Shown here one piece after another: positions 49,868 through 57,614 of a stretch of 64,000 nucleotides of DNA. Below the pieces are notes generated by a model that saw nothing but the letters and a program-made list of their open reading frames with translations, was not told where the DNA came from and made no database searches. Every line of letters begins with the position of its first letter. The first letter of the stretch is position 1. The position numbers and the translations under genes were made by a program. This DNA comes from Candidatus Poribacteria bacterium (GTDB lineage: Bacteria; Poribacteria; WGA-4E; JAJDTR01), in the NCBI GenBank assembly GCA_965222225.1, contig CBDCTK010000002.1, forward strand, positions 736,001 through 800,000, in the 5' to 3' direction.

Positions 49868-49925
49868 TCAAGCCGAATATGCTGAAGAGGAAAACTTGGA
49901 ACGTTATCTATACGGAGGCAACACG

Positions 49926-52832
49926 ATGAAGGGATTGTCGATAGGAATACAGCACCGGTTTAGCCTCCGGATTGAAACTCGGTGGGCAGCCCTAACTTTC
50001 ATCCTTCTCTGCATCGTCTGCTTGGAATTTGATCCGCTCAGTTCGCGAAAAGGATGGGCACAAGGGTTCGGGAAGAACAAGGTCACCGATCAACATTTCG
50101 ATTGGTTGATCCATCGGACAGAACACTTTCACATATACTATTATCCTGCGGAGGCACAGCTAGTGCCAATCATGGCGGATATTGCCGAAGAGGCATACGA
50201 AAAACATAGTGAAGACTTCGAACATGAGATTGCAGATCGAACACCGCTTATTCTCTATCAGTCGCACAAAGATTTTCAAGAAACGAACATCATTCTCCAA
50301 GAACTCCATGAGGGCATCGGCGGGTTCGCAGAGATTTTCAAGAGGCGGGTGGTGATTCCATTTACAGGGTCAATGGAAGCGTTTCGCGAGGTAATTTTTC
50401 ATGAGTTGGTTCACATCTTTCAATACGACATTATCTACCAAAAACCAACCGCTCGCATTTATAGCGGCGAATTCCTATATTCCGCACCAATCTGGTTCAT
50501 TGAGGGAAGTGCGGATTATTTCGCCGAAGACAACGATGCTATCGGCGAGATGGTATTGCGAGACGCGAGCGTTCACAATCGGATAGTCCCCCTAGTGCAC
50601 TTGCATAACTTTCGAATCCTTGGGGCGCAAGCTTTTCTAGGCTACAAGATGGGACAACTAGCGATAAAATACTTGGCTGAAACATACGGTCGCGAGAAGG
50701 TTGGGGAGATTATGCAGGAGTTGCGGCAGAGCCGAACCAAAGATTTGAATGAAGCGTTTCAGAATGTGCTGGAAATAAGCCTTGAAGAGTTTGACGAAGA
50801 TTGGCGTCGCACAGTGAAAAAGAAATATTGGCCGATGATTGAGCACCGAGATTTGCCCGACGCCGTGTCCAAGAATTTGACAGAAAAATCACGCTATTCA
50901 CATAACGTAAAACCGGTTTGGTCTCCGAGTGGCGACCTTATCGCGTATGTTACCGGGAATGAAGGTTTTGGCGAAATCGTCCTGATGTCCGCGAAGACGG
51001 GCGAGAGGATGGATAGAATTAGCAATCAATTTTTCGGAAGCAAATATGAAGAGATTCGTAGCGATGGACGAGCGCTTGCTTGGTCGCCGGATGGCAATCG
51101 TATCGCATTCATCGGAAAACATCGCGGCTCCGATTACTTTCTTGAGATAAACATCCTAAACAAACGGTTAACGCGTCGCATCAAGCTGGACTTTGACGCA
51201 GCTTCTTCACCCTCCTATGACGGTAGCGGCGAGCGGGTGGTTTTTTCTGCCATGAAGGACACACAGGCAGATCTTTACATCCTTGAATGTGCTACGGGTG
51301 AAATGGTTCCCTTGACGAACGATCGCTTTAACGATACGCATCCGGCTTGGAATCCAACACGTGAAGAGATTATCTATTCGTCTGAACGGGAAGGAAAGTC
51401 CAAGCTAATCGTCATTGATGTTATCCGACGGACACAACGGCAACTGACCCATGACAACTATGGCTCTGTAAGTCCAAATTGGTCGCCAAGCGGAGAGGAG
51501 GTCATCTTCTGCACCGACATACGAGGTGTATATGACATTTATACGATAAAGTCTGACGGTACGGAGCTTACTCGGTGGACCAACATTATGACGGGTTGTT
51601 TCAATCCCAGTTTCTCGCCGGACCGTAAGAGTATTGTGTTCGCGGCATATCAGAATGGCAAACAAGATATCTATCTCATGGAAACAGATAAAGCAATCAA
51701 TGAGAAGATAGATATGCCTCCAGTGGAATTGCGTCCTGTAGCTCTAGAAGCCAATGAAGAGCGAGAACATCGGATTTCCAGAAGAAAATACGGTCCCAAA
51801 GTTGCTCTGGATGCGATATTTACAGATTTTAACTTGGGTGCGGATGGCCTTCTGCGTAATACGACGGAGCTTATTGCCAGTGATATGATGGGAAATCATC
51901 GCTTGGGCTTGAGTGTGGCGAATCAATCGGGTTTTGTCGCGCCCGATTTCATTGCGCGCTACGGGTATCTTTCACGCCGTGCCGATATTGGCGCGGCAAT
52001 ATTCAATTACCATCAATATCATGTGTTGGGCTCGACGCGCAATCGAAGGGGTTTGCTGCAACGAACCACCGGGTTGATGGGTTATTTCAGCTATCCTTTT
52101 AATCGCTACAGGCGTATTGATTTTCAGACTTTGTTCTATTCCACGCCGTTCACTTACAACTTCGAGACCAATCGTACCTTCGACGACGGTCGTGGATTTC
52201 TTATGCTCGGCACAGTTTCTTTCGTGAACGACACCACAAGGTGGAGGGAATTCGGTCCGCATACCGGCGCACGTTACCGGTTCGCTCTTGAAAAATCATT
52301 TCGCGACCTTGGCAGCGACTTAGATCTTATCAATGTCATTTTCGATGGACGGCGGTATTTCAAACTGGGGAGACGATCGACATTGGCAACACGCCTATTC
52401 TTGGGGGGCAGTTTTGGTGAGGATCAATCTCTGCTCTATCTTGGCGGTATTGATTCTCTCCGAGGCTACCGATATGAGGAGCTTGTTGGCACGCGCATGG
52501 GATTACTCAATTTTGAAGTGCGCATCCCGTTCATTGACGAACTGCGTTTCGGTTGGCCTTTCGCATGGGCGATCGGTGGCATTCGAGGAATCATATTTGC
52601 GGATTTTGGTACTGTTTGGTCGGATAACGAATTCAATTCCGAGAATAGATATCACGTTTTACGACGTGACGGGAATTGGTACCGTCTTGACGATGTAAAA
52701 GGAACGATTGGCATCGGACTACGTCTGCAACTGGGTTTGTTTTCACTGGATCTCGCCGCAGCACGGCGTACAGACTTGGCAAGTGTAAATCCGGAAGTTA
52801 GGTACCACTTCGGATTGGGCCGAGCGTTTTAA
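49926..52832 (+). CDS. Zn-metallopeptidase (MA-like) / PD40 beta-propeller / Omp85 (BamA/TamA) barrel fusion
   Basis: QGFGKNKV, HELVH (HExxH) with WFIEG.A, repeated P.WSP.G motifs, LGG.DSLRGY, FADFG.VW, G.G.GLR and a C-terminal Phe. Confidence 0.88.
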   Translation: MKGLSIGIQHRFSLRIETRWAALTFILLCIVCLEFDPLSSRKGWAQGFGKNKVTDQHFDWLIHRTEHFHIYYYPAEAQLVPIMADIAEEAYEKHSEDFEHEIADRTPLILYQSHKDFQETNIILQELHEGIGGFAEIFKRRVVIPFTGSMEAFREVIFHELVHIFQYDIIYQKPTARIYSGEFLYSAPIWFIEGSADYFAEDNDAIGEMVLRDASVHNRIVPLVHLHNFRILGAQAFLGYKMGQLAIKYLAETYGREKVGEIMQELRQSRTKDLNEAFQNVLEISLEEFDEDWRRTVKKKYWPMIEHRDLPDAVSKNLTEKSRYSHNVKPVWSPSGDLIAYVTGNEGFGEIVLMSAKTGERMDRISNQFFGSKYEEIRSDGRALAWSPDGNRIAFIGKHRGSDYFLEINILNKRLTRRIKLDFDAASSPSYDGSGERVVFSAMKDTQADLYILECATGEMVPLTNDRFNDTHPAWNPTREEIIYSSEREGKSKLIVIDVIRRTQRQLTHDNYGSVSPNWSPSGEEVIFCTDIRGVYDIYTIKSDGTELTRWTNIMTGCFNPSFSPDRKSIVFAAYQNGKQDIYLMETDKAINEKIDMPPVELRPVALEANEEREHRISRRKYGPKVALDAIFTDFNLGADGLLRNTTELIASDMMGNHRLGLSVANQSGFVAPDFIARYGYLSRRADIGAAIFNYHQYHVLGSTRNRRGLLQRTTGLMGYFSYPFNRYRRIDFQTLFYSTPFTYNFETNRTFDDGRGFLMLGTVSFVNDTTRWREFGPHTGARYRFALEKSFRDLGSDLDLINVIFDGRRYFKLGRRSTLATRLFLGGSFGEDQSLLYLGGIDSLRGYRYEELVGTRMGLLNFEVRIPFIDELRFGWPFAWAIGGIRGIIFADFGTVWSDNEFNSENRYHVLRRDGNWYRLDDVKGTIGIGLRLQLGLFSLDLAAARRTDLASVNPEVRYHFGLGRAF

Positions 52833-52884
52833 GACTTAAAGATTGAACAGCCCGTTTCAATCTTCAGCTCAAGAAAGGAAAAAT

Positions 52885-55800
52885 ATGGATTCACGTTACA
52901 ATCGATTGATTGTTCTCATTGCCATACTCGCTGCAATTGGCGTGTTGGTTGCCATCTTTGTGAAAATCTATCCAGACCTACTATGGTTTGGTGTTGTAGG
53001 TTATGGCTCGGTATACAAGAAGATTCTGCTTACAAAAGTGTTCTTAGGGGTTGGTATTGGCAGTTTCTTTCTTTTTGTTACTTTGCTTAACGTCTATCTG
53101 TTGTATCGCTTAACTCCTAGTCGGCTTAGCCGGACGGTTATGGAGAGTATTCCGATAAGAGGAGAGGCTGATTTCGATCTGCGTCGGCTAATCTATGGCG
53201 TATTAACACTCTTGGCGATAGGGTTTAGCCTCCTGATGGGCTATGCGGCGACAGATCGATGGGAGCCTTTTCTGCGGTATTCAAATGCCGAGGGACTCAC
53301 TTTTCAGAATGCCACGCGGCTCGTTGAACCGGTTAGCCGTGATGCTACCGAGTTACACATTGCCGAACTGGAACTAAAAGCCAAAGGCATGCGAGTTGGG
53401 GACTCGGTTGTGATTCAAGATACAGGCGGAAAGGCGACTGCAAGCATCCAATCCATTCAGGTTCAAGGCGATGGCGTTGCAAAAATCCAATTGGAGAGCC
53501 CCGTAGGATTCGATGTAACGACAAATGCGACGCTGATGGCAGCAGCACGCGATCCGATTTTTCAGAAGGATGTCAGCTATTATGTTTTCAGGATGCCCCT
53601 TGAACGCTTCATCATTGGGAATCTGTTTGGATTGTTCATGTTGTTGACCTTCTTTTCTGTCGCCATTTACTTTTTTCACGGTCTGCTCATCGGCGATAAC
53701 AATCGTCTTGCCCCGCCGCCCCGGGTTAAAGTTCATCTCCTGACACTTGGTGCATTGACACTGATATTTCGCGGCTTGAACTATCGTTTTGCAATGTATG
53801 ATTTGCTCTACACGACGAATGATGTTGTGCGCGGTGGTGGTGGATACGCCGCAATACACGCCCGCCTACCGCTATTGAAAATCCTCTTGGTACTTTCACT
53901 CATTTGCGCCGGGATTTTTCTGGTTAGCATTTTCCTAAAGCGACTCAGATATGCTTTCGGAGCGTTTGGAATCTTTCTGCTCGTCGGTCTGATTGGACAA
54001 GTCTATCCGACTGTAGTGCAGAAATGGCGCGTTGAACCGAACAAACAGGAACTTGAGACAGAATACATCAACTACAATATCAAGGCAACACTGCATAGCT
54101 ACCATCTGGAAGAGAATAGGGTTACGGAAGAGGAATATCCCTTGACTGGTGAACTCTCGTACGAAAGCGTTAGAAATCAGGAAAACGCCGCGGTAATGAA
54201 CAGTATTCGACTTTGGGATGAACGCCCCATCCAGCGGACTTTCCGACAGTTGCAGGAATTGCGCTCACAATACGATTTTCATAGCGTGGACATTGATCGG
54301 TACTCAGTAGACGGTTCGCCGCGTCAAGTAATGTTATCCGTACGAGAATTGAACATAAACGAACTTCCGCACGCCGTTCGGAACGATTGGTTTAAGCGCA
54401 CCTATGTATTCACCCATGGATATGGGGCTGTGATGAGTCCCGTTAACGAGATTCTTGATGGAAAACCGAAAATGTATGTTGGGGATATAGATCCGATTGA
54501 CTATGAGCCCGAGTGGGATTATCGATTCGGTGAAAACCCGGGACCTCGGATCTACTATGGAGAACGCACGAATCATTATATTATCGTGCATCCGGGACGT
54601 AAGGAAGAGTTGGAATTTGATTACCCGACATCATTTGGTGAAGATTTTGCCAAGTATGCGTACCAAGGAATGGGAGGTGTTGAACTCTCCTCCTTTTGGC
54701 GCAGGTTTGTATATATGCTGAAGTTTGGTAATGAGTTCAAGTTCGTTCTTCCGGGGGCGATTGAGTCCAATAGTCGCGTACTCTATCATCGCAACATCAA
54801 GGAGCGAGTCAAAAAAATTGCGCCTTTCCTTCAGTATGATGGCGACCCATATGCAATCGTCCATGACGGCAAATTGGTCTGGATGCTTGATGCCTATACG
54901 ACCACACATCGGTATCCGTATTCGGCGCCGATGCAACATGCATTACGCGCCGAAATTGCCGAACAGCGCGGCAGACGTGCTGCCGGTCGGATTCAAGGCG
55001 GTGAAAAACCCTGGGGGAATTACATCCGCAATGCAGTAAAGGTTGTGGTTGATGCTTATGACGGCAGCATAGAATTTTATGTCATGGAGCGGGAAAAAGA
55101 TCCGATTGTCACATGTTATCGCAGTATTTTTCCTGATTTGTTCAAGCCTTTTGACATGATGTCAGACGCACTCAAAAGACATATCCGCTACCCGACCACA
55201 ATGTTTCTCATTCAGGCGCGGATGTATCAGGATTATCACATGAAGGATCCGATCACATTCTACGCAAGCGAGGATCAGTGGGAAATTGGGAAGGAACTTT
55301 ACGACAATACGGAACGTCAACGTCCTCCGCAGGCTCAGATGCCATCAAGCCCGTTCGCCCCGCGTCAGCCAAGCTTGCCTGAAACTATCACGAATGTTCA
55401 GGAGGTGGCGCCCTATTATGTAATTATCAAGTTGCCGGGCGAGGAACGGGCTGAATTCATGCTTATGTTGCCGTTTACACCCAAGAACAAACCTAACCTA
55501 ACGGCTTGGTTCGCGGCCCGATGCGACCTTCCACAATACGGACAACTGTTAGTTTATCGGTTTCCGAAGGGAAAACTCGCGCCCGGACCAATGCAAGTCG
55601 AGAACTTCATTAGCCAAGAACCTGAAATCTCCCAGCAGATTTCATTGTGGGACAGTCAGGGTTCACGCGTGCTCCGTGGTAATCTGCTGATTATCCCGAT
55701 GAATGAATCTATCCTCTATGTAGAACCCATCTATATCCAGGCGGAGGATGCCGCAACGGCGATTCCCGAGTTACGGAGGGTGGTCATAGGGTACAAGGAG

Positions 55801-56097
55801 AAGGTGGCTTGGGGAAAGACCCTTGATGAAGCGCTGATTAACATATTCGGAAAAAGTCTGGCGTCTGCTATAGGTGGTTCCGTCACATCTGAGGATGGCT
55901 CCAACATCATGCGTGTAGACGTGCCAACGTCTAGTAAGACATCCGCTCGCGATTTAGTAAACTCGGCGAGCCAACACTTTGAATCGGCGCAGAAGGCTCT
56001 ACGCGATGGAAATTGGTCGGAGTATGGCAGACATCTGAATCTATTGGAGCAGACTTTGAAGCAACTGGAAGCGAATACACAGAAAGGAGGTGAATAG
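52885..56097 (+). CDS. UPF0182 family membrane protein
   Basis: LWF..VGY, DPIF.KD.SYYVF, IRLWD, DIDRY, THGYG, PRIYYGE, D.DPY, NYIRN, DAYDG, PYY and LYVEPIY motifs. Confidence 0.93.
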   Translation: MDSRYNRLIVLIAILAAIGVLVAIFVKIYPDLLWFGVVGYGSVYKKILLTKVFLGVGIGSFFLFVTLLNVYLLYRLTPSRLSRTVMESIPIRGEADFDLRRLIYGVLTLLAIGFSLLMGYAATDRWEPFLRYSNAEGLTFQNATRLVEPVSRDATELHIAELELKAKGMRVGDSVVIQDTGGKATASIQSIQVQGDGVAKIQLESPVGFDVTTNATLMAAARDPIFQKDVSYYVFRMPLERFIIGNLFGLFMLLTFFSVAIYFFHGLLIGDNNRLAPPPRVKVHLLTLGALTLIFRGLNYRFAMYDLLYTTNDVVRGGGGYAAIHARLPLLKILLVLSLICAGIFLVSIFLKRLRYAFGAFGIFLLVGLIGQVYPTVVQKWRVEPNKQELETEYINYNIKATLHSYHLEENRVTEEEYPLTGELSYESVRNQENAAVMNSIRLWDERPIQRTFRQLQELRSQYDFHSVDIDRYSVDGSPRQVMLSVRELNINELPHAVRNDWFKRTYVFTHGYGAVMSPVNEILDGKPKMYVGDIDPIDYEPEWDYRFGENPGPRIYYGERTNHYIIVHPGRKEELEFDYPTSFGEDFAKYAYQGMGGVELSSFWRRFVYMLKFGNEFKFVLPGAIESNSRVLYHRNIKERVKKIAPFLQYDGDPYAIVHDGKLVWMLDAYTTTHRYPYSAPMQHALRAEIAEQRGRRAAGRIQGGEKPWGNYIRNAVKVVVDAYDGSIEFYVMEREKDPIVTCYRSIFPDLFKPFDMMSDALKRHIRYPTTMFLIQARMYQDYHMKDPITFYASEDQWEIGKELYDNTERQRPPQAQMPSSPFAPRQPSLPETITNVQEVAPYYVIIKLPGEERAEFMLMLPFTPKNKPNLTAWFAARCDLPQYGQLLVYRFPKGKLAPGPMQVENFISQEPEISQQISLWDSQGSRVLRGNLLIIPMNESILYVEPIYIQAEDAATAIPELRRVVIGYKEKVAWGKTLDEALINIFGKSLASAIGGSVTSEDGSNIMRVDVPTSSKTSARDLVNSASQHFESAQKALRDGNWSEYGRHLNLLEQTLKQLEANTQKGGE

Positions 56098-56098
56098 A

Positions 56099-56380
56099 AT
56101 GGGATTGGATTGGAAACCACGCCATCGGGATACGCTTATCGGAGACATTTCTTGGTTGGCACGAATTACTGACAAGGCAAACGCCAAGTTAGCCGGTACA
56201 ATCGGTGATTACATTTACCCGTGACCGGCAGACAAAAAGTTCCTGGAGGAACACAAGATAAGTGCTGAAGCATTCGTTGAGATGGTGAAGAAAAATCCTT
56301 CGGACGTTGAAATGATTGCAGCGATGAAGTCGCTCAACAAGCCATCAAAGAAGGGCAAGTCGAAGAGCCGTAAATCCTGA
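56099..56380 (+). CDS. DUF5069-like protein with in-frame TGA (candidate selenoprotein, 93 aa)
   Basis: Not in the ORF track. AAGGAGGTGA SD before ATG. MGLDWKPRHRDTLIGDISWLARITDKANAKLAGTIGDYIYP-U(TGA 56222)-PADKKFLEEHKISAEAFVEMV...; family similarity continues past the TGA; hairpin at 56239-56252. Confidence 0.75.
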
Positions 56381-56528
56381 TGAGACAGCCGTAATGCGTG
56401 AAAGCTTACCATGCGGGTCCAATGAATAAAATCAAGTCGTTTATCATTCACTCGACTAAACTAGTATCGGGTTTTATCCCTCATGATTCATGCATTACGT
56501 CTCTCCTATTCTATGGGAGATTCTATTA

Positions 56529-57614
56529 TTGGAATTAGAAACTTTCCGAGATCAGTTGGATGAGATTGACAATCGGATATTGCTCCTGCTGCACAATCGC
56601 GCCGAGGTGGTACGTAAAGTTGGGCAACTCAAAGCGAAAGCAGGCGTGGAAAACGTCTATGTTCCTCACCGAGAGACAGAAATTCTTGCTCGGTTGCGGG
56701 CAACGAATCGCAACTACTTTCCCGCGGATGCATTGGACACAATTTTTTCCGAGATAATTTCCGCATGTCGGTCATTGGAGAGACGTTTACGGGTAGCTTT
56801 TCTAGGTCCCGCAGGGAGTTTCGGTCATGCGGCGGCTCTTCGACATTTTGGTTCGTCGGTTGATTTCACTCCAACAATGGATCAAACCGATGTATTTGTG
56901 GAGGTTGAATCGGGCGGAGCGGATTACGGCGTCGTTGCCATAGAGAACTCATCGAGAGGGACAGTCCGCGACGTATTAGAGATGTTTGAAGTTACGACGT
57001 TACAAATCTGCGCAGAGGTGATTTTGCCGATTGACCAGAACCTACTTTCTAATACTTCAAAGGAGCAAATCACTAAAGTTTATTCGCACCCACAGCCGTT
57101 TGCGCAATGCCGAGAGTGGTTGCGCCAAAATCTAAGGGGTGTGCGGCAGATTGAAGTCGCAAGCACATCGGAAGCCGCACACTTGGCGGCGGCAGAGGAA
57201 GACGCCGCGGCTATAGCCAGCAGGCTCGCCGCTGAAATCTATGGCTTGCGAATTGTCGATGAGTCAATCATGGACAGTTCGAACAATATAACGCGCTTCC
57301 TCGTGATTGGACGACATACTGCGAAGAGAAGCGGTCAAGATCGTACGTCAGTTTTTATTGCCATCCAAGACAGAGTTGGCGCTCTTTACGAAGTGTTGAC
57401 GGTTCTACAGAAGCACCAAATTAATATGAGCAAGATTGAATCAATGCCAGCCCAGACAAAGCCGTGGGAGTACGTGTTTTACGTCGATTTGGATGGACAT
57501 ATCGAAGATGTTAACGTACAGGCAGCGCTGCCAGAGCTTGAAGCATTGTGCATGCATGTCAAGCTGCTAGGTTCCTATGCCCGTGGCGCATCGCCACAGG
57601 ACAAATCGACCTAG
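56529..57614 (+). CDS. pheA: Chorismate mutase / prephenate dehydratase (P-protein)
   Basis: CM domain (R..LD.ID..IL.LL..R) plus FLGPAGSF, IENS, SHPQPFAQC, NITRF, KIES.P and WEYVFYVD motifs. TTG 56529 preferred. Confidence 0.95.
   Translation: MELETFRDQLDEIDNRILLLLHNRAEVVRKVGQLKAKAGVENVYVPHRETEILARLRATNRNYFPADALDTIFSEIISACRSLERRLRVAFLGPAGSFGHAAALRHFGSSVDFTPTMDQTDVFVEVESGGADYGVVAIENSSRGTVRDVLEMFEVTTLQICAEVILPIDQNLLSNTSKEQITKVYSHPQPFAQCREWLRQNLRGVRQIEVASTSEAAHLAAAEEDAAAIASRLAAEIYGLRIVDESIMDSSNNITRFLVIGRHTAKRSGQDRTSVFIAIQDRVGALYEVLTVLQKHQINMSKIESMPAQTKPWEYVFYVDLDGHIEDVNVQAALPELEALCMHVKLLGSYARGASPQDKST

Follow-up and report, generated by a model that had tools for sequence, protein, structure and literature searches.

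A probable selenocysteine-decoded DUF5069 gene with a conserved SECIS-like hairpin in Poribacteria

The window analysed here, a 64,000-nt stretch of DNA, belongs to a Candidatus Poribacteria MAG of 5.7 Mb that is 95% complete and has a G+C content of 50%. Within it, a gene for a UPF0182 family protein stops with TAG at 56095-56097, and 1 nt later, at 56099, lies the ATG of a short DUF5069-type gene, which is followed in turn by a pheA-type gene (Table 1). The short gene carries a Shine-Dalgarno sequence and comprises 41 codons ending in DYIYP, a TGA, 51 further sense codons and a tandem TGA TGA. All of these elements had been located in the same places by an earlier sequence-only reading of the window, which proposed that selenocysteine (Sec) is inserted at the first TGA. 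ORF calling with table 11 yields nothing at this locus beyond a 44-aa fragment and a frame on the opposite strand. The read-through product matches the Pfam DUF5069 model over residues 7-83, across the TGA (E 9.3e-15, 55.4 bits, cut-off 27), which bears out the DUF5069-like identity that had been proposed; this match spans only profile positions 4-80 of 133. None of the NCBIfam models matched the 93-aa protein at E <= 1.

Table 1. Coordinates of the DUF5069 gene, its signals and its neighbours in the window, and of further selenoprotein genes of the same genome.
Feature	Position	Strand	Basis or remark
Shine-Dalgarno sequence AAGGAGGTGA	56084-56093	+	read directly; 5 nt before ATG
93-aa DUF5069-type CDS, proposed Sec at codon 42, stop included	56099..56380	+	translation, Pfam PF16798
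In-frame TGA, proposed Sec codon (U42)	56222-56224	+	aligns with the family's conserved Cys
SECIS-like hairpin GTTCC-TGGA-GGAAC (stem GUUCC/GGAAC, 5 bp)	56239-56252	+	loop UGGA 56244-56247
Tandem TGA TGA, the first being the true stop	56378-56383	+	sequence
UPF0182 family protein, 1084 aa, upstream	52843..56097	+	Pfam PF03699, E 6.9e-242
Chorismate mutase / prephenate dehydratase (pheA type), downstream	56490..57614	+	Pfam PDT, CM_2, ACT
Selenoprotein genes outside the window, G000:C2	55552-56283, 511916-512290, 2059572-2059787, 2933348-2934274, 4550015-4550398, 5053797-5054621, 5528618-5528989		

The in-frame TGA is a fixed feature of the order to which the window's genome belongs. All 41 genomes sampled from it (four families and ten genera, with orthologues 63-94% identical) have an ATG start and a TGA at codon 42, followed by 39-56 further open codons. 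Nearly all of these 41 orthologues have a GGAGG-type site before the ATG, and their stop differs in both codon and place, being TGA, TAA or TAG at codons 82-99. A Lys/Ser-rich tail, KPSKKGKSKSRKS (56342-56377 of the window), is present only in the window's genus and a sister genus; the orthologues of other families end at about residue 81.

Across the phylum, a DUF5069 orthologue was found in 168 of 176 genomes at E <= 1e-10, and each of the 150 matches listed contains one TGA. Among the 168 genomes with an orthologue, 158 carry the TGA and eight a Cys codon (G062 and G146 stand outside this tally). The TGA-bearing genomes span eight families, including f6, f7 and f9. All eight genomes of family f8 are without the stop; their codon 42 is TGC (7) or TGT (1) in the context YIYP-C-PAD. 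The eight genomes with no match comprise two incomplete f2 genomes (81%) and every genome of f5, f10 and f11. At the loci that were fetched, codon 42 is TGA in 130 of 138, TGC in seven and TGT in one; the two locus collections overlap in genomes, and the sounder count is 113 distinct genes (105 TGA, 8 Cys). A scan of metagenomes returned 22 loci, two of them partial and excluded; 13 of the remaining 20 have TGA and seven have TGC or TGT. The Cys-form orthologues are continuous proteins.

This distribution bears directly on the possibility of a sequencing or assembly error, or of a strain-specific nonsense mutation, in favour of which there is only the prior for a single assembly. The TGA recurs in 158 genomes of eight families and on 13 independent metagenome contigs, and contigs from RNA libraries of three studies list no difference at it, so that an error or chance mutation must be regarded as already refuted. 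A TGA unique to this assembly, one of the cases that the sequence-only reading had named as counting against it, is thus not what was found: the codon is phylum-wide, and the nearest Cys forms have TGC or TGT in its place. The same comparison shows the UGA and the hairpin behind it to be conserved together in sister genomes, with the exact 14-mer of the hairpin in 101 of 105 distinct TGA forms.

The RNA-library contigs just mentioned come from metatranscriptomes and cover the gene; they may hold DNA, and no difference is listed at either the TGA or the hairpin. In two RNA-library runs a single contig extends from the end of the UPF0182 gene through the DUF5069 gene to the start of pheA, by which neither a transcript nor its ends are shown. 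In two metatranscriptome assemblies, contigs break at the hairpin (56239-56280 of the window), where the summed word depth is some 25 times as high as elsewhere (2254 and 2650 compared with about 90). Many co-resident strains of Poribacteria with the same invariant hairpin would be expected to cause such a rise.

On the same strand, UPF0182 precedes the gene at 116 of 138 loci; the deeper families lack it. The pheA gene lies downstream on the same strand, also at 116 of 138 loci and including all eight Cys-form loci; it is the more widely kept neighbour of the two, and it is not adjacent to the seven more distant Cys forms from metagenome loci. The placement of the gene at the end of an envelope operon, as first proposed, therefore holds for the loci that have UPF0182 upstream and does not extend to the deeper families. 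In the window, UPF0182 is itself preceded by a gene (49896-52832) for a 978-aa protein with peptidase MA, PD40/beta-propeller and Omp85 domains.

Selection on the codons beyond the TGA was estimated from 103 distinct Sec-form genes by the Nei-Gojobori method (1500 sampled pairs, of which 739-1055 were left after pairs with saturated dS were dropped). The dN/dS ratio is 0.06 for codons 1-41 and about 0.12 after the TGA, and the residues that are invariant after the TGA include D45, F48, L49, E50, E51, F59, P67, S68, D69, M72, I73 and A75. The low dN/dS together with these invariant residues indicates that the downstream region is translated; purifying selection past the UGA, on which the first proposal had made itself depend, is evident.

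These results bear on the reading of the TGA as a real stop, under which the locus would encode a 41-aa peptide or be a pseudogene with an untranslated downstream frame. Gene calling with table 11 does end there, and 11 of the best 150 database representatives of the family, of the 473 described below, end at the corresponding ...Y[IV]YP. However, the 39-51 downstream codons contain no stop at any of the 130 TGA loci and show the constraint just described, the Pfam match crosses the TGA to residue 83, and the Cys-form orthologues run on without interruption. We consider a genuine stop very improbable, and the 11 gene calls that stop exactly at ...Y[IV]YP are taken to be truncated at the TGA; they suggest that further family members carry a TGA in this column.

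The wider family indicates which residue the TGA replaces. A profile search of 1.84 billion representatives yielded 473 proteins at E <= 1e-3, 44 of them at E <= 1e-10. In the 170 domain matches obtained from the best 150 of these 473 proteins, the column aligned with codon 42 holds Cys in 110, Ser in 29, a gap in 15 and Trp in one, and Cys accounts for 110 of the 155 filled cells. The UGA column is therefore the main conserved Cys of DUF5069, as the sequence-only reading had suggested from a DUF5069 motif that agrees with the family alignment. Most Cys forms read P-C-P, and the Ser forms belong mostly to a separate G-S-G subtype. Since Ser replaces Cys in 29 of the 170 matches, the Cys is not essential to every DUF5069 domain.

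Existing database records represent the gene in several ways. Trp is read at the codon in some calls, namely in all four of the ENA sequences examined (P0153, P0154, P0155 and P0158), most simply as a result of table-4 gene calling on short contigs. In the database proteins P0153-P0158, from short ENA contigs, the Sec-TGA is rendered as Trp and the translation also overruns the true TGA stop, an apparent table-4 artefact by which the selenoprotein is concealed. The hits that come from NCBI under the name 'DUF5069 domain-containing protein' are Cys forms. P0161 and P0162, the Cys forms nearest to the Sec clade, are known at the protein level and already contain FLEEH.

The genome has the machinery for Sec insertion that the sequence-only reading would lead one to expect. 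The selA (601 bits), selB (343 bits), tRNA-Sec (76 bits) and selD (364 bits) genes all score above their curated cut-offs, and the anticodon of the tRNA-Sec is TCA according to ARAGORN. The first three adjoin on one strand outside the window (G000:C2:1590238-1593758), and selD has an in-frame TGA of its own, in the context ...ECAG-U-ASKL of Sec-type selD. The genome is also rich in selenoprotein genes, with five Prx-like genes, one Rdx/SelW-like gene, one FdhA-like gene and selD, each with one TGA. The TGA occupies the canonical Sec place in the five Prx-like genes (F-U-PFC, W-U-PFC, W-U-PNS and two GG-U-T), in the Rdx/SelW-like gene (CTA-U) and in the FdhA-like gene (SRA-U-HAP). The family collection searched includes NF041374, a model listed in PMC13188914, as a genome search confirmed. 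Since selA is found in seven of the eight Cys-form genomes as well (the eighth is 61% complete), the presence of the machinery does not separate Sec from Cys forms, and the Cys state is not a result of its loss.

Recoding of Sec codons to Cys has been described in bacteria. UGA-42 might likewise be read as Trp or Cys by a near-cognate or suppressor tRNA or by a Cys-charged tRNA-Sec-like tRNA, or the code might be reassigned; the database calls with Trp, four of four such ENA sequences examined, would fit such decoding. Several observations are at odds with it. TGA serves as a regular stop codon here: among the 2330 open frames that reach 300 codons, 784 (34%) end in it, and the window's genus terminates the DUF5069 gene itself with TGA. 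The homologues hold Cys at this position, with Trp in only one of the 170 domain matches from the best 150 of 473 proteins. In this genome selA, selB and tRNA-Sec form a canonical cluster and selD is of the Sec type, and the TGA at codon 42 is followed by a hairpin whose SECIS geometry resembles that of known selenoprotein genes of the same genome. Read-through with an amino acid other than Sec is thus very improbable.

The hairpin had been noted in the sequence-only reading with a G at loop position 2 and a distance of about 20 nt from the UGA. It is indeed present at that place: the 4-nt loop UGGA has G as its second nucleotide and begins 19 nt after the UGA. The four codons that form most of the hairpin are almost free of variation in the 103 distinct Sec-form genes, with TTC, CTG and GAG in 103 of 103 each and GAA in 102 of 103. 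Their pS is 0.011, compared with 0.717 in the remaining downstream codons, and synonymous sites outside the hairpin codons are near saturation. The Leu codon of the hairpin is CTG in 103 of 103 genes, at a codon entropy of 1.7-2.1 bits in the other Leu columns. The exact 14-mer, found in 101 of the 105 distinct TGA forms, is absent from all eight Cys forms; the four exceptions consist of one GAG for GAA and three replacements of the closing G-C by A-U or G-U. In the metagenome loci the exact 14-mer accompanies the TGA in 13 of 13 and the Cys codon in none of seven. Taken over both sources, the hairpin accompanies the TGA in 114 distinct TGA forms and is found in none of 15 Cys-form DNAs. The FLEE residues encoded here are invariant in the Sec forms and drift in the Cys forms (FLER, FLQR, WLQK, FLKQ and LLKK), from which it follows that in the Sec forms the RNA imposes FLEE on the protein.

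A different role for the conserved hairpin, as a minus-strand terminator, a regulatory or protein-binding RNA, or the by-product of a protein-level need for FLEE, has some points in its favour: in a simple scan the reverse complement resembles a terminator, and the FLEE residues are themselves invariant in the Sec forms. Yet no minus-strand gene ends upstream of the hairpin, the plus-strand pheA intervenes and the minus-strand T run is not conserved. A need for FLEE in the protein cannot explain the zero synonymous change in a six-fold Leu codon. The residues and the hairpin are both altered in the Cys-form DNAs, and the association of the hairpin with the TGA (114 distinct TGA forms, 0 of 15 Cys-form DNAs) is left unaccounted for. 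Such roles, taken as a replacement for Sec decoding, are highly improbable, and the hairpin is most likely the SECIS element of the DUF5069 gene.

It is the comparative evidence, not the folding energy, that places this hairpin beyond chance. The core hairpin folds with -5.7 kcal/mol (z -1.0 to -1.6), and 18-33 of 200 shuffled sequences fold equally well. Longer stretches reach -7.6 kcal/mol (45 nt) and -10.7 kcal/mol (60 nt), only with an outer stem that is unsupported by the alignment; in the 60-nt fold this stem, which pairs CGGCA with UGCUG, was rejected as it is dropped by RNAalifold over 95 distinct sequences, where only the 5-bp stem is retained. Covariation in the same 95 sequences is thin, as three of the five core pairs are invariant: one stem pair changes from G-C to A-U in two sequences, with the intermediate G-U in one, all in a single clade. 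Two additional pairs lengthen the stem in 54 and 66 of the 95 sequences, though not in the window, and relatives with 7-bp stems reach -9.2 and -11.1 kcal/mol for 41 nt. No Rfam family matched at E <= 1 between positions 55600 and 57000 of the window.

The rules given for bacterial SECIS elements specify a loop of 3-9 nt, an upper stem of 4-16 bp, a G in the first two loop positions, a distance of 16-37 nt from the UGA and a folding energy of -7.5 kcal/mol or lower (PMC13188914). The DUF5069 hairpin agrees with those for loop, stem, G position and spacing, and the -5.7 kcal/mol of its core lies above the energy threshold. Five genes of known families in this genome (selD, the FdhA-like gene, two Prx-like genes and Rdx) have hairpins after their Sec-TGA with a spacing of 17-22 nt, stems of 5-8 bp, loops starting with G (GGG, GGUCU, GUG, GUU and GUA) and energies between -4.7 and -12.5 kcal/mol. 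The DUF5069 hairpin falls within this range, at its weak end, and differs from these SECIS hairpins in being unusually invariant in nucleotides across the phylum. In the other three Prx-like genes of the genome the scan detected no comparable simple hairpin.

Taken together, the conservation of the TGA, its pairing with Cys in homologues, the selection downstream, the hairpin and the Sec machinery support the proposal of Sec at codon 42, and on this comparative sequence evidence window positions 56099-56380 are very probably a genuine Sec-decoded gene, a statement that concerns decoding and not function. SelB with Sec-tRNA(Sec) would bind the mRNA hairpin at 56239-56252 and deliver selenocysteine at UGA-42, and the ribosome would then run on to the stop at 56378. 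The product of these steps, which we infer from the comparisons above, would be a 93-aa DUF5069 selenoprotein, a small predicted four-helix protein with Sec-42 in place of the family's conserved Cys.

Within Poribacteria, a single change from Cys to Sec is the probable origin of the Sec form, which has since been retained. On a quick tree of 125 distinct proteins, 95 with Sec and 30 with Cys, two Sec/Cys changes are needed; a single Sec clade is not rejected by an AU test (p 0.66), which is no proof of one. One Cys-to-Sec change is the simplest reading because Cys is the state outside the Sec clade.

Compared with the Cys-type DUF5069 proteins (PF16798), including the structure 3omd, the Poribacteria form shares the P-R, WLxR, DKxRA, G..Y.Y, C-P and D positions. 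It differs from them in having Sec for Cys, in an mRNA hairpin that is absent from the Cys forms, and in its short length of 81-98 aa, which corresponds to the first ~80 of the 133 profile positions. With the bacterial selenoproteins catalogued in PMC13188914 it has in common a conserved in-frame UGA with aligned Cys homologues, a stem-loop 16-37 nt downstream with an early G in a small loop, and dependence on selABCD. Unlike the thioredoxin-fold selenoproteins with UxxC or CxxU, the DUF5069 protein contains neither motif, has no second Cys and is predicted to be all-helical. The HesB-like (UxGP) and rhodanese-like carriers (PMC13188914 Table 1) are closer in character, being small proteins with one Sec, a Pro close by and no partner Cys, although they show no relation to it in sequence or fold; by analogy with these carriers, a cluster, metal or chalcogen-carrier role would be suggested.

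A review of 2026 catalogues 119 prokaryotic selenoprotein families (PMC13188914 Table 1), and DUF5069 / PF16798 is not among them, in agreement with the initial impression that DUF5069 is not a standard selenoprotein family. A full-text search of the literature found no mention of DUF5069 or PF16798. Titles and opening lines of abstracts on selenocysteine and sponge symbionts contain nothing on the DUF5069 topic, and the literature found on Poribacteria and selenoproteins concerns NiFeSe hydrogenases. The main texts of deep-Sep and BSepDB do not name DUF5069; their supplementary family tables could bear on this point. On searchable text, DUF5069 is thus a new family of a well-known kind of selenoprotein.

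An AlphaFold2 model built from 67 aligned sequences (pLDDT 81, pTM 0.67) consists of two short strands and four helices, and places Sec-42, within the motif Y-x-Y-P-U-P-x-D, directly before the second helix (43-51). The 93-aa chain has no other Cys, which makes U42 its sole Cys/Sec residue. The nearly invariant positions of the family are P7, R8, R22, D25, K26, R28, A29, G36, Y38, D45, F59 and D69, with R28 replaced by N in the window's genus. The only solved relative is PDB 3omd, an uncharacterised protein of Leptospirillum rubarum (hmmsearch E 1.1e-15), in which ...GEYTYNCPLD... aligns with ...GDYIYPUPAD..., so that YNCPLD stands at the Sec place. Foldseek superposed the model on 3omd with E 3e-4, a query-normalised TM of 0.74, an rmsd of 1.1 over 73 columns and 40% identity. 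In the PDB 3omd was the only match at E <= 0.001, the other 22 having E > 3, and the model matched no thioredoxin-fold structure at a meaningful E-value. An ESM Atlas search with the natural Cys form P0168, with PF16798 excluded, gave no usable hit.

The neighbours, fusions and fold searches do not indicate a specific function. The UPF0182/pheA neighbourhood was discarded as a guide, being lineage synteny and not a family-wide link. No pattern emerges from the neighbours of the distant Cys forms (sugar epimerase, GFO/IDH oxidoreductase, CBM), and the fusion partners in longer DUF5069 proteins (cupin, dienelactone hydrolase, DUF2249, SAM methyltransferase and AI-2E transporter) are too varied to point to a function. 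The conserved Cys of DUF5069 is the probable working residue of the domain. Sec use is a strong pointer to a reactive residue and so singles out one residue of DUF5069 for chemistry. We tentatively suggest that this residue could act as a single reactive chalcogen nucleophile, either in a redox, peroxide or disulfide reaction with an outside reductant or in the handling of sulfur, selenium or a metal, an assignment that is somewhat less likely to be right than wrong.

A combined interpretation, which we consider likely on the whole, is that DUF5069 is a selenoprotein family listed in no catalogue and belonging to the core genome of sponge-symbiont Poribacteria, that the use of Sec identifies the family's conserved Cys as a reactive centre, catalytic or redox, and that the frozen hairpin dictates FLEE and could have a second role, for instance in coupling selenium supply to pheA expression. 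If this is true, the whole DUF5069 family, a domain with a crystal structure and without a known function, gains a testable one. Current annotation truncates or mistranslates the gene, so that protein sets lack a core protein of this major phylum of sponge symbionts; once recognised, it enlarges the bacterial selenoproteome by one family. The almost complete association of the TGA with the 14-nt hairpin would also be a clear case in nature of a SECIS element that has shaped the sequence of a protein.

A second DUF5069 gene of the same genome lies outside the window on the minus strand (G000:C2:5588506-5589747). It encodes a 446-aa protein with three tandem DUF5069 domains of the Ser subtype, which read Y-G-E-N/D-S-G-x-D where the Cys type has Y-P-C-P-x-D. 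Similar proteins of 428-511 aa are found in most genomes of the order.
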